Part shown: positions 7,655 through 35,715 of the stretch, one piece after another
Layout of the letters: every line of letters begins with the position of its first letter
Numbering within the stretch: position 1 is the stretch's first letter
Source of the DNA: Escherichia coli
Lineage (GTDB): Bacteria > Pseudomonadota > Gammaproteobacteria > Enterobacterales > Enterobacteriaceae
Assembly (NCBI RefSeq): GCF_041886205.1
Contig: NZ_CP169029.1
Reading direction: 5' to 3' (one strand)
DNA length: 64,000 bases
Notes under the pieces: model-generated
Seen by the model: only the letters and a program-made list of their open reading frames with translations
Database searches by the model: none
Told to the model about the DNA's origin: nothing
Position numbers and translations under genes: made by a program

Positions 7655-7705
7655 GATACTGCGCTGGATACTACAAACTACTTCCACCGAACCCACCGTA
7701 ATTAG

Positions 7706-7781
7706 TGGTGGGTCGTGCAGGATTCGAACCTGCGACCAATTGATTAAAAGTCAACTGCTCTACCAACTGAGCTAACGACCC
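7706..7781 (-). tRNA. lysW: tRNA-Lys (UUU)
   Basis: Identical tRNA-Lys copy. Confidence 0.93.
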
Positions 7782-7783
7782 GG

Positions 7784-7859
7784 TGGTGGGTGATGACGGG
7801 ATCGAACCGCCGACCCCCTCCTTGTAAGGGAGGTGCTCTCCCAGCTGAGCTAATCACCC
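7784..7859 (-). tRNA. valT: tRNA-Val (UAC)
   Basis: Identical tRNA-Val copy. Confidence 0.92.
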
Positions 7860-7994
7860 AATACTACGCTGGATACTACAACTAACTATGTTAGTGGTGG
7901 GTCGTGCAGGATGACTCGACTTCGTCTCGCCCTTCGGGCCGTTGCTGATGCAACGTTATCCTTCACGTTTTACTACCGCTTCCACCTTAGCGAT

Positions 7995-21822: not shown

Positions 21823-23268
21823 ATGGAACTTCGAAATAAGAAATTAACCCATGACGAATTCATGACCGAGCGGCAACAGGTACTGAAAACCTGGGAAACC
21901 GGCAAGGATGTTGAAAACTTTGAAGATGGCGTTAAATACCAACAAACCATCCCTGAGCATAAACGCTTCTCTCTTGCGCTGCTGAAAGCAGACAAGGAAG
22001 GTAAAACCCTTAGCCAACCGCGCGCAGGTGTGGCGCTGATGGACGAACACATCGAACTACTGAAAACACTACAAGAAGAGTGCGATCTGCTGCCAAGCAC
22101 CATCGATGCATATACCCGTCTGAATCGGTACGAAGAAGCGGCTGTAGGGATTAAAAAATCCATCGAAGCCGGAACCTCTAAACTGAACGGTTTACCGGTA
22201 GTTAACCACGGCGTCGCAGCTTGCCGTCGCCTCACCGAAACCCTGCAAAAACCGCTACAGATCCGCCACGGCACGCCAGATGCGCGTCTGCTGGCTGAAA
22301 TCTCGATGTCCAGCGGCTTTACCAGTTACGAAGGCGGCGGCATTTCCTACAACATTCCGTATGCCAAACGCGTAACGCTGGAAAAATCGATCCGCGACTG
22401 GCAGTACTGCGACCGTTTAATGGGGATGTACGAAGAACACGGGATCCGCATCAACCGCGAACCATTTGGCCCACTAACGGGTACGCTGATCCCGCCGTTT
22501 ATCTCGCACTCTATCGCCATAATCGAAGGATTGCTGGCACTGGAACAGGGTGTGAAATCTATCACCGTTGGTTATGGCCAGGTCGGCAGCCTGACGCAGG
22601 ATGTTGCGGCGATCCAGTCTCTGCGTGAACTTGCACACGAATATTTTCAGAGCTATGGCTATACCGACTATGAATTGAGTACCGTGTTTCACCAGTGGAT
22701 GGGCGGCTTTCCGGAAGACGAATCGAAAGCGTTCGCTATTATCTCCTGGGGCGCAGCCGTCGCGGGGATGTCTGGTGCCACCAAAGTCATCACCAAAAGT
22801 CCGCACGAAGCCTGGGGCATCCCGACTGCCGCTGCCAACATTCAAGGGCTAAAAGCCTCCCGCCAGATGCTCAACATGGTCAATGAGCAGAAATTCCCGC
22901 CGTGCCCTGCGGTTGAACTGGAAATTGAACTGATTAAGAGCGAGGTTCGCGCGGTACTGAATAAAGTGTTTGAACTGGGTAATGGTGATATTGCGCGCGG
23001 TACGGTGCTGGCATTTGAAGCGGGCGTACTGGATGTGCCGTTTGCGCCAGCCGCCTGCAACGCGGGCAAAATTCTTCCGGTCCGTGACAACACCGGCGCG
23101 ATACGCGTACTGGAAGCCGGAGCCGTTCCATTGCCAAAAGATATTCTCGACCTCCACCACGATTACGTTGCGGAACGCGCACGCTTTGAAGGACGCCAAC
23201 CGACATTCCAGATGGTTGTAGATGACATCAATGCTGTATCCCACAGTAAATTAATAGGAAGACCATAA
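21823..23268 (+). CDS. glmE: glutamate mutase epsilon subunit (methylaspartate mutase E chain)
   Basis: 481 aa; long blocks resemble remembered clostridial GlmE (PRAGVALMDEHIELL, REPFGPLTGTL, VFHQWMGGFPEDESKAF). Confidence 0.9.
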   Translation: MELRNKKLTHDEFMTERQQVLKTWETGKDVENFEDGVKYQQTIPEHKRFSLALLKADKEGKTLSQPRAGVALMDEHIELLKTLQEECDLLPSTIDAYTRLNRYEEAAVGIKKSIEAGTSKLNGLPVVNHGVAACRRLTETLQKPLQIRHGTPDARLLAEISMSSGFTSYEGGGISYNIPYAKRVTLEKSIRDWQYCDRLMGMYEEHGIRINREPFGPLTGTLIPPFISHSIAIIEGLLALEQGVKSITVGYGQVGSLTQDVAAIQSLRELAHEYFQSYGYTDYELSTVFHQWMGGFPEDESKAFAIISWGAAVAGMSGATKVITKSPHEAWGIPTAAANIQGLKASRQMLNMVNEQKFPPCPAVELEIELIKSEVRAVLNKVFELGNGDIARGTVLAFEAGVLDVPFAPAACNAGKILPVRDNTGAIRVLEAGAVPLPKDILDLHHDYVAERARFEGRQPTFQMVVDDINAVSHSKLIGRP

Positions 23269-24509
23269 TGAAAATAAAACAGGCTCTGTTCACCGCTGGC
23301 TACTCCTCATTCTATTTCGATGACCAGCAGGCGATAAAAAACGGAGCGGGTCATGACGGCTTTTTTTATACCGGGGAGCCGGTAACACAGGGGTTTAACG
23401 CCGTTCGTCAGGCCGGGGAGTGCGTATCGGTACAGTTGATTCTGGAAAACGGCGCGGTCGCCGTAGGTGACTGTGCTACCGTACAGTATTCCGGGGCAGG
23501 TGGTCGCGATCCACTGTTCCTCGCAGAGCACTTTATTCCGTTCCTCAACGATCATATCAAGCCATTACTGGTAGGCCGCGATGTGGATGCTTTCCTGCCG
23601 AATGCCCGTTTCTTCGACAAATTGCGTATTGACGGCAACTTGCTGCATACCGCCGTGCGCTACGGATTATCACAGGCGCTGCTTGATGCTACCGCGCTGG
23701 CAACCGGCCGTCTGAAAACTGAAGTGGTCTGTGATGAATGGCAGTTGCCACGCGTGGCGGAATCCATTCCATTATTTGGTCAGAGCGGCGACGATCGATA
23801 TATCGCCGTCGATAAGATGATCCTTAAAGGCATCGACGTGCTGCCCCATGCGCTGATTAATAACGTCGAGGAGAAGCTGGGCTTTAAAGGTGAAAAACTG
23901 CGCGAATATGTCCGCTGGCTGTCGGATCGCATTCTGAGCAAGCGCACCAGCGCACGCTACCACCCTACCCTGCACATCGATGTATACGGCACTATCGGTC
24001 TGATCTTCGATATGGATCCGCTTCGCTGTGCGCAATACATCGCCAGCCTGGAAACAGAAGCGCAAGGCCTGCCGCTCTACATTGAAGGGCCGGTCGATGC
24101 CGGTAACAAGCCCGATCAAATTCGCCTGCTGACCGCGATTACCAAAGAGCTGACGCGCCTCGGTTCTGGCGTGAAAATTGTGGCCGATGAATGGTGTAAC
24201 ACTTACCAGGATATTGTTGATTTCACCGATGCCGCCAGTTGCCACATGGTGCAAATCAAAACCCCGGATCTGGGCAGTATTCACAACATCGTCGATGCGG
24301 TTCTTTACTGCAACAGCCACAGCATGGAAGCATACCAGGGCGGCACCTGCAATGAAACTGATGTCAGTGCCCGCACCTGTGTCCACGTCGCCCTAGCCGC
24401 TCGCCCTATGCGTATGCTGGTAAAACCAGGGATGGGCTTTGACGAAGGCCTCGATATCGTCTTCAACGAAATGAATCGTACTATCGCGCTGTTGCAGGCT
24501 AAGGATTAA
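23268..24509 (+). CDS. mal: 3-methylaspartate ammonia-lyase (beta-methylaspartase)
   Basis: 413 aa enolase-superfamily protein; motifs GAGHDGF, VQYSGAGGRDPLF, ADEWCNT, HMVQIKTPDLG match methylaspartase; start overlaps glmE stop. Confidence 0.9.
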   Translation: MKIKQALFTAGYSSFYFDDQQAIKNGAGHDGFFYTGEPVTQGFNAVRQAGECVSVQLILENGAVAVGDCATVQYSGAGGRDPLFLAEHFIPFLNDHIKPLLVGRDVDAFLPNARFFDKLRIDGNLLHTAVRYGLSQALLDATALATGRLKTEVVCDEWQLPRVAESIPLFGQSGDDRYIAVDKMILKGIDVLPHALINNVEEKLGFKGEKLREYVRWLSDRILSKRTSARYHPTLHIDVYGTIGLIFDMDPLRCAQYIASLETEAQGLPLYIEGPVDAGNKPDQIRLLTAITKELTRLGSGVKIVADEWCNTYQDIVDFTDAASCHMVQIKTPDLGSIHNIVDAVLYCNSHSMEAYQGGTCNETDVSARTCVHVALAARPMRMLVKPGMGFDEGLDIVFNEMNRTIALLQAKD

Positions 24510-24512
24510 CAA

Positions 24513-25883
24513 ATGGCTCGTTCTTTTAAAGTCTTATCGCCAACGGCAATCCTCGGGTATGGATTCCCGGAAGAGAGCTTCCGCAAAGCGATGGCAGAAT
24601 CGCCTGATCTGATCGCCGTTGATGCAGGCTCTTCCGATCCTGGCCCCCACTACCTCGGAGCGGGCAAACCGTTTACCGATCGCGCAGGGGTCAAGCGCGA
24701 TCTGCGCTATATGATCACCGCAGGCGTGCAAAATAATATACCGGTGGTGATCGGAACGGCCGGCGGTTCTGGTGCCGCACCACACCTGGAGTGGTGCCGA
24801 GAAATAATTCATGAGATTGCCCGGGAAGAGCTCCTCTCGTTCTCGATGGCACTGATCCCGGCAGACGTTGACAAAGCCATCGTCCACCAGGCGCTGGATA
24901 ACGGCAAAATCACGGCGCTGGATTTTGTCCCGCCGTTAACCCACGACGCGATTGACGAAAGTACGTATATCGTCGCGCAAATGGGCATCGAACCCTTCCA
25001 GCGGGCGCTGAAAGAAGGCGCGCAAGTGGTGCTGGGCGGGCGCGCTTACGACCCGGCCTGCTTTGCTGCGCTCCCGATCATGCAAGGCTTTGATGAAGGT
25101 CTGGCGCTGCATTGTGGGAAAATCCTTGAATGCGCGGCAATCGCCGCAACGCCCGGCTCAGGCTCTGACTGTGCGATGGGCATCATTGATGACAACGGCT
25201 TTACGCTGAAGACATTTAATCCGAAGCGTAAATTTACCGAAACGTCAGCAGCTGCACACACACTGTATGAGAAATCCGATCCCTACTTCCTGCCAGGACC
25301 TGGCGGCGTGTTGAACCTGAAAGGCTGCACATTTAAAGCAGTCAATGACGGCGAAGTGTACGTCAGCGGTTCCAAGCATGAAGAAACGCCGTATGCCCTG
25401 AAACTGGAAGGTGCGCGACGGGTGGGCTTCCGCTGTCTGACCATCGCCGGAACGCGCGACCCGATCATGATCGCCGGGATCGATAAAATCATCGATGAAG
25501 TCAAAACCAGCGTTTCGCGTAACCTGTCGCTAGACGATGACAGCATTCGCATCAATTTCCACCTGTACGGCAAAAACGGGGTGATGGGCGACCATGAACC
25601 GATGCAAACTGCCGGGCATGAGCTGGGGATTGTCCTTGATGTAGTTGCACCGACCCAGGAAATTGCCAATAGTGTTTGCTCGCTGGTGCGCTCTACCATG
25701 CTGCACTACGGCTATGAAAACCGCATCGCTACCGCAGGCAACCTGGCGTTCCCGTTCTCTCCTTCTGATATCCAGGGCGGGCCGGTATACGAATTTTCCA
25801 TATATCACCTGATTGAAGCCAACGACGCTCTGCGTTTTGATTTCCATATTGAACAGGTGACGCCAGAAGGAGTTCAGGCATGA
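24513..25883 (+). CDS. conserved protein of unknown function (possibly DUF1446/AtuA-like family)
   Basis: 456 aa ORF 3 bp after mal; soluble; family assignment is from memory of motif pattern only and is tentative. Confidence 0.7.
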   Translation: MARSFKVLSPTAILGYGFPEESFRKAMAESPDLIAVDAGSSDPGPHYLGAGKPFTDRAGVKRDLRYMITAGVQNNIPVVIGTAGGSGAAPHLEWCREIIHEIAREELLSFSMALIPADVDKAIVHQALDNGKITALDFVPPLTHDAIDESTYIVAQMGIEPFQRALKEGAQVVLGGRAYDPACFAALPIMQGFDEGLALHCGKILECAAIAATPGSGSDCAMGIIDDNGFTLKTFNPKRKFTETSAAAHTLYEKSDPYFLPGPGGVLNLKGCTFKAVNDGEVYVSGSKHEETPYALKLEGARRVGFRCLTIAGTRDPIMIAGIDKIIDEVKTSVSRNLSLDDDSIRINFHLYGKNGVMGDHEPMQTAGHELGIVLDVVAPTQEIANSVCSLVRSTMLHYGYENRIATAGNLAFPFSPSDIQGGPVYEFSIYHLIEANDALRFDFHIEQVTPEGVQA

Positions 25884-26197
25884 AACAGTCAATTGTCTCA
25901 CTGGCGCAAGTCATTCGTTCGAAAAATGCCGGACCTTACGAACTGGTTTTAGATATTTTATTTAAAACTAAAGAAAACTATGAGCGAGTTAAATCATCAG
26001 GGCAATTAACCCCAGAACTGATTGCGCGCTTATATCATGTTGAACCTGACTTTATTCATCGTATTGTCTGGTTTGATCCTTCTAACGCAGTAAAAATCGT
26101 CATGCCACGAGATATTATCTCCGGGAATGTAGGTGACAATGATGTCTATGGTGCACAGCAACATGCACCTTTATTAAATATGAGTTTCGATTTGTAA
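25880..26197 (+). CDS. small conserved protein of unknown function (possibly DUF4387-like partner)
   Basis: 105 aa ORF whose start overlaps the previous stop (ATGA), i.e. translationally coupled. Confidence 0.65.
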   Translation: MKQSIVSLAQVIRSKNAGPYELVLDILFKTKENYERVKSSGQLTPELIARLYHVEPDFIHRIVWFDPSNAVKIVMPRDIISGNVGDNDVYGAQQHAPLLNMSFDL

Positions 26198-26280
26198 AAA
26201 TCCGAACACTTTTAGCCAACTGACATCCCGTCACTTATTGCAGTTCAACACTTCAGCTATTTGTAAGGTTGTAATAGCAG

Positions 26281-26313
26281 GTAGATGCCTGAATCTCTAT
26301 TCAGGCATCTACT
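26281..26313 (+). promoter_or_regulatory. perfect 13-bp inverted repeat with 6-nt loop (gtagatgcctgaa-tctcta-ttcaggcatctac) in the intergenic gap before the transporter gene
   Basis: Perfect palindrome between the small ORF and the transporter; only a weak T-rich tract downstream, so it may be an attenuator/processing site or a protein-binding site rather than a strong terminator. Confidence 0.45.
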
Positions 26314-26357
26314 TCTCCTGATTCTGATTTATCGCCGTGCACCTGATGGAGGAAAAA

Positions 26358-27638
26358 ATGAAGAAAATAAGTTTAACCACGATGATTCTTTTGGCGCTGG
26401 TACTTGGAATGATTATCGGCGTAGTGCTCAATAACACTGCTTCACCGGAAACAGCAAAACTCTATGCGCAAGAAATATCGATATTCACGACGATTTTCTT
26501 ACGACTGATAAAAATGATTATCGCTCCGCTAGTGGTTTCTACCCTGGTGGTAGGTATTGCTAAAATGGGCGATGCCAAAGCCCTTGGCCGTATTTTTTCT
26601 AAAACACTCTTTTTATTTATTTGCGCCTCATTGCTATCAATTGCCTTAGGCTTGATAACGGTAAATTTCTTCATGCCAGGTACAGGAATTAATTTTGTTG
26701 CACACGGTGCCGAAACCACTGGAGTGGTCGCGTCAGAACCCTTCACGCTAAAAGTATTTATTTCGCATGCTTTCCCCACCAGCATTGTCGATGCCATGGC
26801 GCACAATGAAATTTTGCAAATCGTGGTGTTCTCAATTTTCCTCGGCTGTAGCCTGACGGCGATTGGCGAGAAAGGCAGCGCCATCGTTCACGCCTTAGAT
26901 TCGCTGGCACATGCCATGTTAAAGCTCACTGGCTACGTCATGCTCTTCGCTCCCCTGACCGTATTCGCCGCTATTTCAGCATTGATTGCTGAACGAGGAC
27001 TGGCAGTTATGGTGAGCGCCGGGATCTTTATGGGTGAATTTTATTTCACCATGTTATTACTTTGGGTGCTGCTTATCGGTCTGGCCATCGTTTATGTCGG
27101 CCCCTGCATCAGACGCCTGACCCGCGCCCTTTCGGAACCCGCCCTGCTGGCATTTACCACATCCAGTTCTGAAGCGGCTTTTCCGGGAACGCTTGAAAAA
27201 CTGGAGCAATTTGGCGTTTCCCCCAAAATTGCCAGCTTTGTCTTACCCATTGGCTACTCATTTAATCTCGTTGGATCAATGGCCTACTGCTCCTTCGCCA
27301 CCGTTTTCATCGCCCAGGCCTGCAATATCCATTTATCCATCGGTGAGCAAATCACCATGCTGTTGATCCTGATGTTGACCTCGAAAGGAATGGCTGGCGT
27401 ACCACGCGCCTCAATGGTGGTTATCGCCGCCACGCTCAACCAGTTCAATATTCCGGAAGCGGGGCTGATCTTGCTGATGGGCGTTGATCCGTTCCTTGAT
27501 ATGGGGCGTTCCGCGACAAACGTCATGAGCAACGCAATGGGCGCTGCGATGGTGAGTCGGTGGGAAGGCGAACATTTCGGCGAGGGCTGTCGGGGTAAAG
27601 CATTAAAATCCAATGAATCGAACGTTGCTCTGCCCTGA
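26358..27638 (+). CDS. dicarboxylate/amino acid:cation symporter (DAACS family, GltP/DctA-like)
   Basis: About 426 aa multi-pass membrane protein with GltP-like motifs (KMIIAPLVVSTLVVGIAKMGD, TSKGMAGVP); start chosen at ATG 26358 after GGAGGA. Confidence 0.88.
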   Translation: MKKISLTTMILLALVLGMIIGVVLNNTASPETAKLYAQEISIFTTIFLRLIKMIIAPLVVSTLVVGIAKMGDAKALGRIFSKTLFLFICASLLSIALGLITVNFFMPGTGINFVAHGAETTGVVASEPFTLKVFISHAFPTSIVDAMAHNEILQIVVFSIFLGCSLTAIGEKGSAIVHALDSLAHAMLKLTGYVMLFAPLTVFAAISALIAERGLAVMVSAGIFMGEFYFTMLLLWVLLIGLAIVYVGPCIRRLTRALSEPALLAFTTSSSEAAFPGTLEKLEQFGVSPKIASFVLPIGYSFNLVGSMAYCSFATVFIAQACNIHLSIGEQITMLLILMLTSKGMAGVPRASMVVIAATLNQFNIPEAGLILLMGVDPFLDMGRSATNVMSNAMGAAMVSRWEGEHFGEGCRGKALKSNESNVALP

Positions 27639-27745: not shown

Positions 27746-29398
27746 ATGTCCAAACCTTTTATCTGGCAAGAACCGTTTCTACAAAATAAAGACGGTACAG
27801 AATATACATTAATTAGCGATCAACATATTACAGTAACGGAATTAGACGGCGAAGAAGTGATAAAAATCGCTCCTGAAGCATTAACGCTGCTTGCCCGGCA
27901 GGCATTTTATGAAGCCTCTTTTTTCTTACGTTCCGCTCATTTGCAACAGGTCGCCAGCATTCTTAACGATCCGCAGGCCAGTAGTAATGATAAATACGTT
28001 GCGTTGCAGTTATTACGTAATGCTGAAGTCTCAGCAAAAGGGGTATTACCCAACTGTCAGGATACCGGCACCGCAACTATTGTTGCCAGTAAAGGGCAAC
28101 AGATATGGACCGGAGGTAACGACGCCGAAGCCTTAAGCAAAGGCATTTACACCACTTTTCAGGAAAATAATCTGCGCTTTTCACAAAATGCGCCGCTGGA
28201 TATGTATACCGAAGTCAATACGCAAACCAATCTCCCGGCGCAGATTGATATCAGCGCTGTCGCTGGTAATGAGTACCATTTTCTCTGTGTTAATAAAGGG
28301 GGCGGCTCTGCCAATAAAGCCGCGCTTTATCAGGAAACCAAATCCTTATTGCAACCAGAAAAACTGACCGCATTTTTAATCGAAAAAATGAAATCGCTGG
28401 GCACCGCTGCCTGCCCGTCTTATCACATCGCCTTTGTCGTCGGAGGGCTTTCAGCCGATCAAACCTTAAAAGTTGCCAAGCTGGCTTCTACGAAATATTT
28501 CGACAATTTGCCCACCAGCGGAAACGAGCAGGGACAAGCATTCCGTGATATTGAGCTGGAAAAAGCGTTGCTCGAGGCCAGTCAGCAATTTGGTATTGGT
28601 GCGCAATTTGGGGGTAAATATTTCGCTCATGATATTCGCGTCATTCGTCTGCCGCGTCACGGTGGCTCTTGCCCGATAGCTATGGCGCTCTCCTGTTCAG
28701 CCGATCGCAATATCAAAGCAAAAATTAACAAACACGGTATCTGGCTGGAAAAACTCGAACACAATCCGGGGCAATATATTCCAGCCTCACTGCGGGAAGA
28801 AAATCACGCGCAACATGTACAACTGGATCTAAACCGTCCGTTGCGTGACGTGATGCAGGATCTCGCCAGATTACCGGTAGGCACCCGCGTGTCGTTAAGT
28901 GGTCCCATCGTAGTGGCGCGCGATATCGCCCACGCCAAAATAAAAGCGCGGCTGGATAGCGGCGAACCGATGCCGGATTACCTGAAGCATCATATTGTCT
29001 ATTACGCTGGCCCGGCGAAAACACCGGAGAACATGGCCTGCGGTTCACTGGGTCCAACCACGGGCGGTCGAATGGACGGTTATGTCGATACCTTCCAGGC
29101 GGCTGGCGGCAGTCTGGTGATGTTATCGAAAGGTAACCGCAGCCAGCAGGTCACCGATGCCTGTCACAAACATGGCGGCTTCAATCTGGGAAGTATTGGC
29201 GGTGCAGCTGCGTTACTGGCGCAAGAATATGTCAAAAGTCTGCGTTGCCTGGAATACCCGGAGCTGGGTATGGAAGCGGTGTGGATGATGGAAGTGGAAA
29301 ATCTGCCCGCATTCATCCTGGTAGATGATAAAGGCAATAATTTCTTTAGTCAGTTTGAGCAGCAACACCGCTGCGCCAGTTGCCCTGCGGGACATTAA
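27746..29398 (+). CDS. fumD: class I fumarate hydratase family protein (FumA/FumB paralogue; likely mesaconase/fumarase)
   Basis: 550 aa, the size of Fe-S class I fumarases with Cys ligands; located with glutamate mutase and methylaspartase, as remembered for FumD of E. coli O157:H7. Confidence 0.8.
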
Positions 29399-29407
29399 GG
29401 AAAATGA

Positions 29408-30010
29408 ATGGAAGCGCGAATTTCAACTGAACGGCATGTGCAGCGCCAACAGAAATTGAAGGAACAGGTCGATACGCGCGTCGCGGCGGCGATAGAGAAA
29501 AAAGGGATCTTGATTGTTTTCACCGGCAACGGCAAAGGGAAATCCACTGCCGCGTTTGGTACTGTGACGCGCGCGGTGGGTCATGGCAAAACGGTGGGGG
29601 TTGCGCAGTACATCAAGGGGCAATGGGACAACGGCGAATACAACCTTCTCCAGCCGCTGGGGGTTGAGTTTCATATTATGGGAACCGGTTTTACCTGGGA
29701 GACACAGAACCGGCAAGCGGATATCGACGCGGCGAAAGAGGTCTGGTCGGAAAGCAAACGGATGCTGGCTGACAAGCGTTACGACTTAGTGGTGCTTGAT
29801 GAGCTGACCTATATGCTGGCTTACCATTATCTGGATACCGAAGAAGTGATCGCTTCTCTGCAAAACCGCCCGGCACAACAAAGTGTCATTGTCACCGGAC
29901 GCGGTTGCCACAGTCAGATATTAAAAATGGCGGATACGGTAAGCGAAATCCGTCCCGTCAAACATGCTTTTGATAACGGCATTCAGGCCCAGCCGGGTAT
30001 CGACTGGTAA
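29408..30010 (+). CDS. cob(I)alamin adenosyltransferase (CobA/BtuR family) paralogue
   Basis: 200 aa with P-loop GNGKGKSTAAFG and strong similarity along its length to remembered E. coli BtuR; last gene of the operon. Confidence 0.88.
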   Translation: MEARISTERHVQRQQKLKEQVDTRVAAAIEKKGILIVFTGNGKGKSTAAFGTVTRAVGHGKTVGVAQYIKGQWDNGEYNLLQPLGVEFHIMGTGFTWETQNRQADIDAAKEVWSESKRMLADKRYDLVVLDELTYMLAYHYLDTEEVIASLQNRPAQQSVIVTGRGCHSQILKMADTVSEIRPVKHAFDNGIQAQPGIDW

Positions 30011-30043
30011 TAACTGCGCCTGGCATCCCGCCAGGCGCAGGTT

Positions 30044-30949
30044 TTACATCTCCTGCGGTACGACCGATTTCACCAGCAACCATTCACGAAATTGCTGCAA
30101 GTGCGGTGAGTCAGACTTCTCTTCCTGCCACGTCATAATAAAACGATTACCGGTACGAATAGGCACATCACAGGGGATCACCATATCGCCACTATCCAAA
30201 TCATGTTGAATAGCGAACCGTGGTAACAGCGCCACGCCGAGATTAGAGCGCACGGCGGCAATCAGCATTGAAAGCAAATCGAAACGTGGTCCGTTGTTGA
30301 CCAGCGGACTGCTAACGCCAGATAAAGCAAACCACTCTTCCCAGCCAGTAATACGGGTGCTTTGATGCAGAAGTGGTAACTCAGTAAGCAGTTCTGCCAC
30401 TGACAGTTTTTGATCGGACATTGCAAGCAAACTGCCACTGCATACCGGCAAAATCTCCTCTTCAAAGAGATATTCTACTTCCGCCCAGGGCGCGCAAAAA
30501 TTTTCGCGCATAATGACAGCATCGTACTCCCGATTAAGAAAATCGCCGTTATTAGCTAAAGAATGAATATTAACAATAATATCGGGATGTAACTTTGTGA
30601 ATTCATGTAAATTTGGGATTAACCAGTGGGTACTAAAAGTAGGATTAACGGCAAGTTCAATAACCTGAACCGTAGGCTGCCAGGTCATAATGGTATTGGT
30701 ATCGCGTTCCAGCTTATTTAATGTTTCTTTTACTATCCCCAGGTAATACTTCCCTGCATCATTAAGAAAAATGCGTTTTTTAGAGTGTGAAAATAATGGA
30801 GTATGTAAAAATTCCTCCAGCGCACTTACTTGTCTGAATACAGCACTTTGGGTTAACGCTAACTCCTCTGCCGCTCTGGTATAACTTTCATGACGTGCGA
30901 CGACCTCAAAAGTCACCAGCAGTTCCGTTTTAGGTATTTTCCCTCGCAT
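30044..30949 (-). CDS. LysR-family transcriptional regulator
   Basis: 301 aa; N-terminal HTH (ESYTRAAEELALTQSAVFRQVSALEEFL) and LysR substrate-binding domain; convergent with the catabolic operon, divergent from the RtcB-like gene. Confidence 0.88.
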   Translation of the reverse strand: MRGKIPKTELLVTFEVVARHESYTRAAEELALTQSAVFRQVSALEEFLHTPLFSHSKKRIFLNDAGKYYLGIVKETLNKLERDTNTIMTWQPTVQVIELAVNPTFSTHWLIPNLHEFTKLHPDIIVNIHSLANNGDFLNREYDAVIMRENFCAPWAEVEYLFEEEILPVCSGSLLAMSDQKLSVAELLTELPLLHQSTRITGWEEWFALSGVSSPLVNNGPRFDLLSMLIAAVRSNLGVALLPRFAIQHDLDSGDMVIPCDVPIRTGNRFIMTWQEEKSDSPHLQQFREWLLVKSVVPQEM

Positions 30950-31539
30950 AATGCCTTCCGTGAAAAAAATAACAATTCAAAAATTATTTTATAAAAAACA
31001 GTAGCACTAATGAATATCATAATTCAAATAAACAAACCAGTCAGCTATATGTCCAACCAGAAAAATAAAGTGACAATAATCCTAAAACAGTAATTTCACC
31101 TCAGTTATCCACATGCAATACTTTAAAAATATTATTGCAAGAATATTATTCATATACATGAATATACTCTAAATAAGTCGAGTTGCAGGAAGGGAACAAA
31201 TAATGAATCTCCAGAAGATTACATAAGTAAGTGACCTGGGTGAGCGAACATCGATGCAGCACATGCAACTTGAATTATGACAAGTATACAATGATAAATT
31301 TAGATACCCTATGTTATATATTATCTATGTCCGGTTAAATTGAATGAGTCATGGCCTTAAAAGACTTCGCAAAAGATTATTTCTCTTTAACAATAAGCCA
31401 GATTTACCACTTGTAAAAATTGCTATCGCCACATACACTACGCGCGTTTTCTTTCCCTTTTGCTGGCTGCTGACCGGAAAGACAAAATTACCCTCGCAAT
31501 ACAGGGGGGTGTTTAACGTCTATATTTCAGGATAGCGTT

Positions 31540-32937
31540 ATGCATCATCTTTCAAGGTTTGATAAAGCCTTTCTGCGCAAAGGGATCCAACTTTCCCGCG
31601 CCAACAATATTGTTTCATTATCTCGTCCATCAGGTGCCAGTGCCCGCGTACTGTTGCCGGACGAACTGCCACTGGAAGAAAAAGCAGTGACACAACTGCT
31701 TGATTTTGCAGAAGTGAAGCTACCAGACCATCCAGGTTATGTACGCCAGACGTGCGCGACGCCAGATTTTCACCCCGGCAATGGCGTCCCCGTTGGCGCG
31801 GTGGTGGCCTCAACGCCGGATTTAGTCATTCCCGCCGCCATCGGCACCGATATTTCTTGCGGCATGCGGCTGCTAACGACTGGATTAACACTTGAACAAG
31901 CCGAAGCGCATAAAGACGTCATCACTCAGCGGTTAACGCAAGTGCTACTGCAAAATGAGCGCGATGTTCCGTTATCCGCACAGGCGTTCACCGCGCTTTT
32001 TGATGGCGGACCGGCAGATTGCGTGTCGACCTTGCCATCAGCAGGTCTCTGGACACGCATGAATATCCCCCGAATGGTACAAGAGATTGACCGCTGCATT
32101 GGGCTTAACGAGCATAACAGTCACTCGCGTTATGCCCCACCCGCCCTGCTGGCAACGGACCGCGCATTACTCCGCGACCCTTGTCTGGGTACGCCGGGTT
32201 CAGGTAATCATTTTATTGAACTTCAGGTAGTTGATAGCGTGATCGATCGCCATGTAGCCTGGCAACAAGGGCTGAAAACGGGCGATATCGTGGTGATGAT
32301 CCACAGTGGATCGCGAGATGTTGGCTTTTACGTCGGAAGACGCTGGATGGATCGCGCCCGTGCTGAATGGCCCATCGGACATAAACATCCACAAAGCGGG
32401 TTATATGGTCTGGCAGGCGGACTGGCGGAGGAATATCTACAAGCGATGGGAATGGCGGCGCGTTACGCATGGTTAAATCGCGTGACCATTGCGGAAATGG
32501 TTCGCGTATGTTTTGCCGATTTATTTCATCAGGATGATTCACATCTGGTGGTGGATGTGCCGCATAACATCATCCTTCGCGAACATGAAATGAATATTCA
32601 TCGCAAAGGTGCAACACCGGCACACGCGGGCGCTCTGGCATTAATCCCCGGTTCAATGGGCGATTATACGTGGCTTGCGGTAGGTTGCGGCAACCCGGAG
32701 TGGTTGTGGTCATGCAGTCACGGAGCAGGACGCAGCCAGCGTCGGCAGGCCATGCGCTCACGCGCGACTGAAGAGTCAACGCTGCCGTGGCAATGCGTCA
32801 CATTGCGTGAAGAACGACGTCTTGAAGAAGCGCCAGCTGCTTATAAAGATATTGCTCCGGTTATCGAAGCCCAACAAGAAGCTGGATTGATTCAGCCTGC
32901 GGTCAGATTTCGACCGTGGTTAACGTTTAAGGGGTAA
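31540..32937 (+). CDS. RtcB-family RNA ligase paralogue with ~55 aa N-terminal extension
   Basis: 465 aa; RtcB motifs DFHPGNG, IPAAIGTDISCGMR, GSGNHFIELQ, HSGSRDVG, IPGSMGDY, SCSHGAGR, AYKDI line up with remembered E. coli RtcB. Confidence 0.85.
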   Translation: MHHLSRFDKAFLRKGIQLSRANNIVSLSRPSGASARVLLPDELPLEEKAVTQLLDFAEVKLPDHPGYVRQTCATPDFHPGNGVPVGAVVASTPDLVIPAAIGTDISCGMRLLTTGLTLEQAEAHKDVITQRLTQVLLQNERDVPLSAQAFTALFDGGPADCVSTLPSAGLWTRMNIPRMVQEIDRCIGLNEHNSHSRYAPPALLATDRALLRDPCLGTPGSGNHFIELQVVDSVIDRHVAWQQGLKTGDIVVMIHSGSRDVGFYVGRRWMDRARAEWPIGHKHPQSGLYGLAGGLAEEYLQAMGMAARYAWLNRVTIAEMVRVCFADLFHQDDSHLVVDVPHNIILREHEMNIHRKGATPAHAGALALIPGSMGDYTWLAVGCGNPEWLWSCSHGAGRSQRRQAMRSRATEESTLPWQCVTLREERRLEEAPAAYKDIAPVIEAQQEAGLIQPAVRFRPWLTFKG

Positions 32938-33029
32938 CTGAAATGATAAATGGCCTGCGGTTCTCACGCAGGTCAAATCTGGTATCTGCGTAAGCTAACA
33001 AACTTGTTTATCAACAATTTCAGGCCATC

Positions 33030-33058
33030 CGAAGATGGCCTGAAATTATTGCCCCCCT
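33030..33058. terminator. hairpin downstream of mngB (ttcaggccatc-cgaa-gatggcctgaa)
   Basis: Perfect 11-bp stem directly after the mngB stop, flanked by A/T tracts; it also lies just past the right end of the insertion. Confidence 0.55.
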
Positions 33059-33081
33059 TAGATACACTTTTAGCGCAATAA

Positions 33082-35715
33082 TCAGCCAAGGCGGTAGATA
33101 AATGTCCGTGACTGCCCCGGTAAAAATGCCCCCAGTTCCTTTAAATTATCTCTTTCCGCTGTGCTGATGCTTTCATCCATCATCGTTTGCGTACATGAAA
33201 TCACCTCACGACTGAACGCGACAGTTGCCTCACAGGTTGTCGATTCTGCCGGATTAAACAGTCGCAATACCACTTCTTGCCGGTCTTCCGCTTTTTTAAG
33301 AGCGCTAATCAGGCATCCCACAGGAGGCATTTTCAGCAAGCTATGGCTTTCCGGCACATTGAATCCGGCTTTATTTAACTTCATCGCATCCCATGGGATT
33401 TTGTTGTAACACTGTACTGGCGTCAGCCATGCACGCGCCTGCTGGGCTACACCGGCGGTCGCAGGCGTACCTGTATAACTAAATAAGCTCAGACGGCAGC
33501 TAAAGGAGCCACGTAATTGTGAATCGGGCACCGGCATTTTTATGCCTGAAGGACGTCCAGGCCTTAAGAGCAGATCTTCTTTGCCCAGTAAGCCCACGCC
33601 ACGCAGCAACGTAATGGCAAAGGTTTTCTTCTCTTCACCGATGACTTCGAATTCACGTAGCCCTTCGCTAAAGACAGCCAGACCGTTACGCCCTTCCTGT
33701 AAGGCAGCATAGTTGAGCATATTCCATACCGGAACAGGCGCTTCTTTCCAGCCTTCTTGTTGCCAGACATCCATCGCACTGTCGCTCACCGGGCGCGTTA
33801 GTGAACCAAACTGGGTATCGGCCAGAACACTGTCGGTGTTAAAAGGTGTAGGGACCAGGACGCGAAGGCGATGATCGTCAGCCTGGTTATCAAGGTTGAT
33901 ATCCACATCAATACGTCTGCTGTTATCACTCAGAGTGACAACCAACTCCACCCCTACTCTGCCAGTGGATTGCCGGGCGCTGCGTTCTGACAAATTGAGC
34001 GGCACTGCCATGTCATAGCGGATAACAGCCCTGCTCTGCCAGGCTTCATGAATAATATCGCATTGCGGTTTCGCGTTCGCCGCGGTAATTACCCACTCTT
34101 CTTTTGCGGGTGAATAGTCATATTCATCACCATCATCAGAGCTTTCTTCAATTTGCAACACCCGGTCATAGCGCACACCGCTATCTTTATCTACCAGTTG
34201 TAGCGTTCCATCCTCATTGAGCGCAATTTGCCAGAAAGCATTTTCCAGTATCCCTTCAGCGTTACTTTTTGCCGCAATCACGTTGCCAGGCTGATTCGCT
34301 TCGATATAAAGCGTGCGATAGCCCATAGAAGGGACAATCTGGTTGATCTGTATATCAAACTCCATAAAGGGATCGTAATTACCGTAATGAACGATTTGCC
34401 GATCGATTAGGCCAGGATCGATCTCACGGGCATGGCGAATAAAATACGGCACAGGATGACCGCGATCGTCCCGTAAATTAAACTGGCTGGCGCGCAGGCG
34501 CACAGTGGTGTTAATCACTTCTTCTCGCGGCCAGGGCATCAGGTTAAACAGGACGAGTTTGTCGGCGTCGCTCTGCGGCATGTTGTCGGCGATTTTACGC
34601 ATATAGAAACGAATCAGATTATCCGCCATGTCTTCAGCCAGTTCGAAGCGGGCGACGATTTCGCGATGAACTTTGTCACTGCAACAACAACCGATGCTGT
34701 CGTGGGCATGATTTTTTAAGATCTCTTTCCACATTTTCTCCAGCAAGCCGTGGTGGTATTCAAAACCCAACGTCCAGGCCAGCGTTGCCAGCGGTTCCAG
34801 CAGATTAACAATCTTATTTTCAATACGTGCGTGGGCAACTTTGATATCCATGCGCGTGGAACCGATGGTGCGATGTACGCGCATATATTTGCCATCAATA
34901 AATTCACCTTTCAGGGTCGCCAGACTTTCACGCTGCGCTTCAATCTGCTCGAATACCTCTTCAAAGCGGCTCATCACAAACTTTCGTTGAGGATAAATTT
35001 CGCGAAGTTTCTCCATCACTTCGAAGATATTTTGCTGCAATGGCATCTGGTCATGACCATTCGGCAGCAAAATCTCTTTGGTTACTGACGCTTTTTCCAG
35101 CACGTCAAAATAGCTGTCGAGGCGTTTACGTAATCCGTCTTCGTCCGCAGGTAAGTACTTACCGATGGCATAACCCAACGGCAGCACCTGCGCCGTCACT
35201 TCGCTACCGTCACTGCTTTGCCACAAAAACTCGGTTTTATCCGTACCGTGGCGCTCAGAACATCCGCGCCAGAACATGGTGCGGGTAATGCCAAATCCAT
35301 TGTAGATATGCGGCAGTTGCCCGGACATGCCAAAGGAATCCGGTAAATAACCTATTTTCATCGGCTCGCCAAACGCGAGGCAGTCACGCATTCCGTACAT
35401 CAGATTACGGACGATGGATTCCGCAGAAACAATCGTGGTATCGGTCTGGGTATACCAAGGGCCGATAATCAACTTGCCGGCTTCTACCAGTTTCTTCACG
35501 CGGTCTTTGTTTTCCGGTTTCACCGCGAAATAATCTTCGAGGATCGCCGTTTGCCCGTCGAGTACGTAATATTTGTATTCGTTGTCCTGTTCCAGTCGGC
35601 ACAGGATCTCTTCCATATTATTGACCAGCAGAATGCGTGACTCTTCGGTGGTGAAATACCACTCCCGATCCCAATGCATATGCGGGGTGATGTGAACGCG
35701 AGATACCGCTTTCAT
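33082..35715 (-). CDS. mngB: mannosylglycerate hydrolase (alpha-mannosidase, GH38)
   Basis: 877 aa; matches MngB. Confidence 0.9.

Follow-up and report, generated by a model that had tools for sequence, protein, structure and literature searches.

The hairpin described here lies in the methylaspartate cluster of Escherichia coli, within a stretch of 64,000 nucleotides (RefSeq contig NZ_CP169029.1) that was analysed as a whole and is called the window. The cluster has the order glmS-glmL-glmE-mal-atuA-DUF4387 and, beyond an untranslated gap, symporter-fumD-cobO. Pfam and RefSeq agree on this gene order, and the genes and landmarks are as follows (window positions).

up to 20416: glmS
20416-21804: glmL
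21823-23268: glmE
23268-24509: methylaspartate ammonia-lyase (mal)
24513-25883: AtuA-like gene (atuA, DUF1446)
25880-26197, plus strand: DUF4387 gene (Pfam PF14330, E = 2.6e-39; also in RefSeq), the last gene of the upstream half
26198-26357, plus strand: untranslated gap of 160 nt, with the hairpin 83 nt past the stop codon and 45 nt ahead of the next ATG
26279-26314, plus strand: full RNA stem of 16 pairs in the MFE and centroid structures, which add G26280·U26313 and A26279-U26314 to the perfect arms
26281-26294, plus strand: 5' arm GTAGATGCCTGAAT, the perfect complement of 26299-26312, aligning with the 5' arm of the hairpin termed hp2 in 32 related loci
26295-26298, plus strand: loop CTCT, 4 nt, unconstrained and 4-11 nt long in orthologues
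26299-26312, plus strand: 3' arm ATTCAGGCATCTAC, 14 nt and 100% complementary to the 5' arm according to the repeat finder
26313-26330, plus strand: tail TTCTCCTGATTCTGATTT, weakly T-rich, not a canonical U-tract and not called by the terminator scan
26348-26360, plus strand: Shine-Dalgarno GGAGG (26348-26352) and symporter ATG (26358-26360), read from the sequence and with 26358 as the RefSeq start
26358-27638, plus strand: dicarboxylate/amino-acid:cation symporter, GltP-like, SDF family (Pfam PF00375, E = 2.3e-102), the first gene of the downstream half
27746-29398: class I fumarase (fumD)
29408-30010: cobO/btuR
30014-30040, plus strand: canonical terminator-like hairpin of 11 pairs, 9 of them G-C, followed by GTTTTAC
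30044-30949: LysR-family gene, convergent

DUF4387 ends with its stop codon at 26197 and RefSeq places the symporter ATG at 26358, which gives the 160-bp gap that the earlier note had described; its account of the flanks, a pair of unknown genes on one side and a transporter/fumD/btuR block on the other, matches Pfam, RefSeq and the published cluster. Because the other genes overlap or sit a few bases apart, the gap can be regarded as an internal operon spacer, and the hairpin in it is probably transcribed within one operon mRNA. The sole canonical terminator that our terminator scan found in the cluster lies 3' of cobO (30014-30040); it is the true operon end and serves as an internal comparison. 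RefSeq annotates no feature in the gap, and the other long gap of the operon, between symporter and fumD, is unstructured (z is +0.9). At the symporter Shine-Dalgarno the motif GATGGAG is nearly invariant among relatives.

The cluster corresponds to the methylaspartate pathway; its fumarase has been characterised as the mesaconase FumD, and pathway activity and enzymes were undetectable in laboratory cultures (Kronen & Berg, PMC4682846). Literature searches with the Sakai tags ECs0752-ECs0762 and ECs0764 returned only a mention of FumD (ECs0757) and incidental tags in two unrelated studies, searches with guessed EDL933 tags (Z0886-Z0892) returned nothing relevant, and searches for DUF4387/DUF1446 yielded no transcript or function data. 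We find the AtuA-like (DUF1446) and DUF4387 genes (24513-26197) as a pair directly 3' of the methylaspartate ammonia-lyase and mutase genes in Enterobacterales, Aromatoleum/Azoarcus, Telmatospirillum, Desulfotomaculum, Clostridiales and Dictyoglomaceae. The pair is a candidate for a missing pathway step, since PMC4682846 leaves open what E. coli does with citramalate. The locus is present in 1,124 of 5,426 complete E. coli genomes, so that about a fifth of them, O157:H7 and O145 included, carry the methylaspartate/mesaconate island.

The palindrome gtagatgcctgaatctctattcaggcatctac (identical to GTAGATGCCTGAATCTCTATTCAGGCATCTAC) occupies positions 26281-26312 on the plus strand, as read from the window sequence. 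A perfect 13-bp palindrome had been placed at 26281-26313 in the earlier note: it is real and its stem is perfect, with the end coordinate set one base too far and with the 13-bp stem and 6-nt loop forming a subset of the 14-nt arms and 4-nt loop returned by the repeat finder. The local fold (66 nt) has a free energy of −24.8 kcal/mol compared with −11.6 ± 2.7 kcal/mol for shuffled sequences (z is −4.9; none of 200 shuffles does as well). The stem has 14-16 bp, with 6 of the 14 core pairs being G-C (43% G+C) and with A-U and G·U pairs at its base. When we simulated the 64-kb window 100 times with a first-order Markov model, perfect hairpins with arms of at least 14 nt and loops of 3-10 nt never arose (mean of 0.0 per simulated window), and those with arms of at least 12 nt had a mean of 0.05. 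The hairpin pattern is unique within the window, and its chance expectation is 0.

To sample related loci, a genome collection was scanned with the AtuA-like protein, yielding 61 loci. The order DUF4387 to symporter, with a gap of 120-364 nt, is found in Citrobacter, Klebsiella, Enterobacter, Lelliottia, Pluralibacter and Buttiauxella, and also in Salmonella arizonae and diarizonae, Yersinia, Morganella, Hafnia and Budvicia. We aligned 33 gaps from the Escherichia/Citrobacter-type group. In this alignment the E. coli palindrome is matched by a hairpin that typically reads GGCGTGCGYCTGAGC-loop-GCTCAGGCGCACGCC in the relatives, and hairpins stand at this same position in 32 loci from Citrobacter, Klebsiella, Enterobacter, Salmonella arizonae/diarizonae, Buttiauxella, Lelliottia and Pluralibacter. 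The sequence common to the E. coli hairpin and its relatives is limited to a preceding CAGG and the core GCCTGA/TCAGGC. RNAalifold recovers from the alignment this hairpin (hp2), a further hairpin upstream of it (hp1), and a helix enclosing hp2. In hp2, 94.5% of the alignment cells are paired and 11 of 14 pairs show compensatory changes on both sides; for the full named structure the values are 94.1% and 15 of 23 pairs. In 500 shuffles these values were never attained, and controls made by sliding are 21-46% paired. Seven double compensatory substitutions separate E. coli from the relatives' consensus with pairing kept.

Wobble pairs in hp2 are strongly asymmetric: 48 cells contain G·U and 8 contain A·C, and the structure is thus read on the sense strand, where 94.5% of the cells pair as compared with 85.7% on the minus strand. 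With third-codon identity in atuA as a neutral proxy (0.67 among relatives, 0.535 between E. coli and relatives), the hp2 arms of E. coli and its relatives have an identity of 0.49, near neutral, and the stem is nonetheless perfect. Loop columns are at or below neutral (0.52 among relatives, 0.16 between E. coli and relatives), and the loop varies from 4 to 11 nt across orthologues. The compensatory changes, the variable loop, the wobble asymmetry and the neutral drift of arms that remain paired therefore argue for an RNA structure rather than a fixed-spacing operator. By these alignments the hairpin is clearly a selected sense-strand RNA structure, selection acting on the structure and not on its sequence. 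The covariation also bears out part of what the earlier note had offered as an RNA option (a partial terminator, or a processing or stability element): it establishes the selected structure, and which of these RNA roles the structure plays is a separate inference.

The architecture around the hairpin varies between lineages. Both hairpins occur in the Citrobacter-type group; of the two, E. coli retains just hp2. In Yersinia, Hafnia and Budvicia the hairpin is hp1, and it carries a U-run. The clade of Pseudescherichia vulneris, Escherichia sp. ESNIH1 and UBA7338 keeps hp1 and the flanking helix and has no hairpin at the hp2 position. In all lineages examined, DUF4387 is followed by one or more strong hairpins. 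The relatives' hp1 (GGAGCAC...GTGCTTC) has compensatory changes in 4 of 9 pairs, with 63 G·U cells against 3 A·C cells (the hp1/linker region spans gap alignment columns 24-60 and 61-86, for example 7686-7853 in locus L018). The linker CATGCGGTTGGTCACAACAGG has an identity of 0.89 among relatives, compared with 0.67 for the neutral proxy, and the helix GGTTGGT/ACCAGCC, which encloses hp2, folds at −11.3 kcal/mol compared with −5.1 kcal/mol for shuffles (1% of shuffles do as well) and shows one-sided changes only. The spacer in Citrobacter, Klebsiella, Enterobacter and Salmonella thereby combines two covarying hairpins, an enclosing helix and constrained internal-loop strands (CATGCGGTTGGTCACAACAGG, ACCCTACA). 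E. coli lacks hp1, the enclosing helix, the conserved linker and an ACCCTAC tail and keeps the hairpin alone; its flanking helix, at −9.3 kcal/mol, is no better than shuffles (−9.7 kcal/mol).

Two Escherichia loci have no symporter gene. In E. whittamii and in strain E1V33 (L033 and L047; 7686-7975), fumD starts ∼270-290 nt after DUF4387, and a 12-bp hairpin with a CCTG/CAGG core, of uncertain homology to the E. coli hairpin, is found ∼30 nt after DUF4387. cobO is shortened in both, matching only over residues 123-167 in E. whittamii and 114-200 in E1V33. The lineage pattern, these symporter-less loci, the unstructured symporter-fumD gap, and the lack of helix and linker in E. coli together associate the hairpin with the upstream segment, on its 3' side, and not with a leader of the symporter.

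Long, highly structured insertions are present at two different places of the spacer, one of ∼195 nt in Klebsiella oxytoca (L053, 7686-7880) and one of ∼110 nt in Citrobacter amalonaticus S646 (L046, ∼7810-7925). They look ERIC/IRU-like and would be consistent with a transcribed non-coding spacer that tolerates inserts. A small ORF across the relatives' spacer, starting from the ATG in TTCATGCGG, was considered and rejected, as the codon is ATA in Pluralibacter and the loop indels are not multiples of three. Searched against Rfam 15 at a permissive E-value, the E. coli window gave only chance-level scores (16-19 bits compared with gathering scores of 50-130) and C. amalonaticus gave none. A metagenome scan with the conserved 14-mer ATGCGGTTGGTCAC returned chance matches, the flanking motif being in none among the matches listed.

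Within E. coli, the hairpin 52-mer and its gap are found by blastn at one place per genome (median 1, maximum 2) in ∼1,123 of the 5,426 genomes and nowhere in the others. The perfect-stem allele is present in 610 of 1,124 records; in 316 the 52-mer differs solely by 26303 A>G, a change that converts a U-A pair to U·G. Other sampled variants comprise loop SNPs at 26295 and 26297, a further wobble at 26285 (A>G) and, in some strains, 26307 A>T and 26310 T>C, each of which breaks a single pair. All sampled variants fold at −19 to −24 kcal/mol. The stem SNPs, two keeping the pair as a wobble and two breaking a pair, are too few to test selection. In strain 100416, an IS1B insertion with an adjacent deletion has removed DUF4387 together with the hairpin's left arm (up to the equivalent of window position 26287), and the IS1 end adjoins CCTGAATCTCTATTCAGGC (L002, 3249-4010).

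Our preferred reading, held tentatively at a probability of about 0.45, is that the hairpin is a protective or punctuating stem-loop between cistrons, with an effect on mRNA decay or 3'-end formation. A stable stem-loop in the spacer of the polycistronic mRNA, between the enzyme genes from glmS to DUF4387 and symporter-fumD-cobO, would block 3'-to-5' exonucleases (PNPase, RNase II) after endonucleolytic cleavage downstream of it, and the upstream enzyme segment would outlive the transporter segment, as in malE-malF and other cases of 'differential operon decay'. The weakly U-rich tail in E. coli may add some pausing or partial termination. Two features of protective stem-loops are found here: a stable sense-strand structure at the boundary of operon segments, and its conservation in related species. 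Decay-protective structures have been documented for E. coli operons, with conservation in Salmonella and Enterobacter (Dar & Sorek 2018, PMC5927463); most of those lie inside coding sequence, whereas the present hairpin is intergenic. The stem-loops of malE-malF and other differential-decay operons share with it a stable stem without a U-tract, soluble enzymes encoded upstream and a membrane transporter downstream, and conservation in enterobacteria. The malE-malF element is, however, a REP repeat with hundreds of copies, in contrast to the single-copy, locus-specific hairpin described here. Two observations speak against a punctuating stem-loop: the additional conserved features of the relatives (hp1, flanking helix and linker) are needless for a simple exonuclease block, and the clade of Pseudescherichia vulneris, ESNIH1 and UBA7338 has no hairpin at this position. 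Most likely the hairpin belongs to an ordinary kind, mRNA punctuation by a barrier to decay or a weak terminator, and resembles known protective intercistronic hairpins; the one at this locus stands outside Rfam and RefSeq annotation. With a structure-selected element in the internal gap, the two halves of the operon, one for the enzymes and one for transporter/mesaconase/cobalamin, probably differ in expression, during or after transcription, and positions 26279-26314 provide a precise mutable target for this question.

The stem could instead act on transcription itself, as a weak or partial terminator or a pause site at which a fraction of RNA polymerases stop, so that transcription of the transporter/fumD/cobO half falls below that of the enzyme half. 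We consider this unlikely. The hairpin is stable and, as with intrinsic terminators and attenuators, a somewhat T-rich stretch follows it in E. coli: the tail TTCTCCTGATTCTGA has a T-score of 3.49 (96th percentile of window positions), near the 4.25 of the cobO terminator. In Yersinia the hairpin in the same gap is a canonical terminator (a 10-bp stem followed by TTTTTTC), so termination at this boundary does occur in the order, and the DUF4387-symporter gap can be read as a transcript boundary across it. However, the tail TTCTCCTG contains only 4 T in its first 8 nt, as against at least 5 T in the 8 nt directly 3' of the stem for a U-run, and the full hairpin is not called by the terminator scan, in line with the earlier remark that a strong U tract is lacking; the hairpin is thus not a canonical terminator. 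Set beside the G+C-rich stem of roughly 5-14 bp in intrinsic terminators, the stem is very stable but long, with 43% G+C and weak pairs at the base, a mixed match. In the 31 non-Escherichia relatives that keep the hairpin, the tail ACCCTACAC is C-rich and T-poor, with a T-score of ∼1.6 that is essentially the minimum (11 non-Escherichia tails scored), and the conserved function can therefore not be intrinsic termination. An equally doubtful role is that of a cis-regulatory leader for symporter-fumD-cobO, either as a structured 5' UTR bound by protein, sRNA or metabolite or as a papBA-type 5' protective hairpin that stabilises the downstream segment after RNase E cleavage. Protective 5' hairpins downstream of RNase E sites have been documented (PMC5927463), and the papBA-type and ompA 5' stem-loops resemble the present case in that an intercistronic hairpin with unstructured A/U-rich flanks stands upstream of the gene to be stabilised. 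The symporter ATG follows the hairpin by 45 nt, and by a similar distance in relatives, where the stable enclosing helix, the sequence-constrained single strands flanking it and the second covarying hairpin upstream would also suit a leader. E. coli, however, has dispensed with helix, linker and ACCCTAC tail, the helix shows no two-sided changes where it exists, the structure belongs to no Rfam family, and the Shine-Dalgarno is neither within the hairpin nor paired to it. The S646 insertion moreover comes between the ribosome-binding site and the hairpin region, loci without the symporter gene still have a hairpin after DUF4387, and the cleavage site required by a papBA-type element is hypothetical here. 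The RNase E motif RN|WUU does occur near the hairpin (e.g. GATTT at 26326-26330); it is too degenerate to carry weight in an A/T-rich gap of 160 nt. Less probable still is that the E. coli hairpin is the remaining core of a structured cis-regulatory RNA, so far undescribed, in the DUF4387-symporter spacer of enterobacterial methylaspartate operons, as the elaborate spacer of the relatives might suggest. If so, the ligand of the spacer RNA could be a protein, an sRNA or a pathway metabolite (glutamate, mesaconate, cobalamin), and the genes for transporter, mesaconase and cobalamin adenosyltransferase could be set independently of those for mutase and lyase.

Readings of the palindrome as DNA fare worse. 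The earlier note had also proposed the operator of a dimeric regulator, perhaps the LysR protein encoded downstream. On this reading a dimeric factor, for example the LysR-family product of 30044-30949, would bind the palindrome to control an internal promoter or block elongation; we regard this as very improbable. Operators classically take the form of a perfect dyad, the cluster ends with a LysR-family gene, and a CCTGA/TCAGG core is found in most orthologues. The spacing from CCTGA to TCAGG, however, changes from 8 nt in E. coli to 14 nt in Citrobacter; in Buttiauxella the core is absent and the stem is kept. The outer half-site sequence has been swapped by compensatory changes, and the tolerance of G·U over A·C, a strand asymmetry, is unexpected for a site in duplex DNA. 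A consensus scan, which weak or activator-dependent promoters could escape, found no sigma-70-like site on the plus strand of the gap in E. coli, Citrobacter braakii or Yersinia alsatica. Sigma-54, CRP, FNR, ops and sigma-S consensus sequences, compared by eye with the conserved linker and tail of the relatives, did not fit in spacing. The palindrome should thus not be taken as the presumed LysR operator. An absence of function, with the palindrome arising by chance or as a remnant of a mobile or repeated element (REP- or MITE-like), is less credible again. It would accord with the lack of RefSeq annotation, with the pair-breaking SNPs 26307 A>T and 26310 T>C in some strains and with the one strain that has lost the left arm through the IS1-associated deletion, but the chance expectation is ∼0 per window, the hairpin is single-copy in ∼1,123 E. 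coli genomes and absent from the others, as no repeat family would be, and its position is conserved with compensatory evolution across genera. As it is single-copy, the hairpin is not a REP element, and an origin from REP/BIME or another repeat family was rejected on the blastn result for 5,426 E. coli genomes. Chance is excluded, and a lack of function is strongly disfavoured.

A conserved protein site in this cluster would look different, as can be seen upstream of glmS. There, at 19836-19853 and 131 nt ahead of the glmS ATG, the 18-mer TGAAAATAGATCAATTGC includes a T-N11-A dyad (TGA-N7-TCA); it is found without a single change in the E. coli window and, of 58 related loci checked, in 35. 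LysR-type operators carry T-N11-A near a regulated promoter. The 26281 hairpin resembles them in dyad symmetry and in having a LysR-family gene in its cluster, and is unlike them in its variable spacing and sequence, its strand asymmetry and the lack of an adjacent promoter; TGAAAATAGATCAATTGC fits far better. We propose the 18-mer as a candidate operator for the LysR regulator of the cluster, or as a promoter element, and as a much better operator candidate than the palindrome. The LysR gene of Aromatoleum is divergent from glmS, which suggests the glmS promoter as the LysR target and again counts against the hairpin.

Several smaller observations concern recurring motifs and the island flank. 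In 14 of 21 relatives (loci L006-L059, ∼1430-1445) CCCTACA stands just before the Shine-Dalgarno of glmS, and it appears again directly 3' of hp2; the E. coli window has CTTACA at the glmS site (∼19950-19960), and in Yersinia and Hafnia CCCTAC precedes the symporter ATG by ∼20 nt. This recurrence may be due to chance, a 7-mer being expected ∼1.6 times per locus. A recurrence of GGTTGGTCA at ∼12.2 kb in six loci proved to be cobO coding sequence. On the right flank of the island (30949-33100), the window strain, which is PT62-like, carries the LysR gene, an RtcB-family gene and then mngB/mngA; in O157 Xuzhou21, sucD/sucC directly follow the LysR gene. A second perfect 14-bp hairpin is located in the convergent rtcB-mngB gap (33012-33051, perfect core 33016-33047). 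Its arms ATTTCAGGCCATC / GATGGCCTGAAAT are similar to the arms ATTCAGGCATC / GATGCCTGAAT of the 26281 hairpin with their order swapped, a likeness that may reflect coincidence or a common motif.
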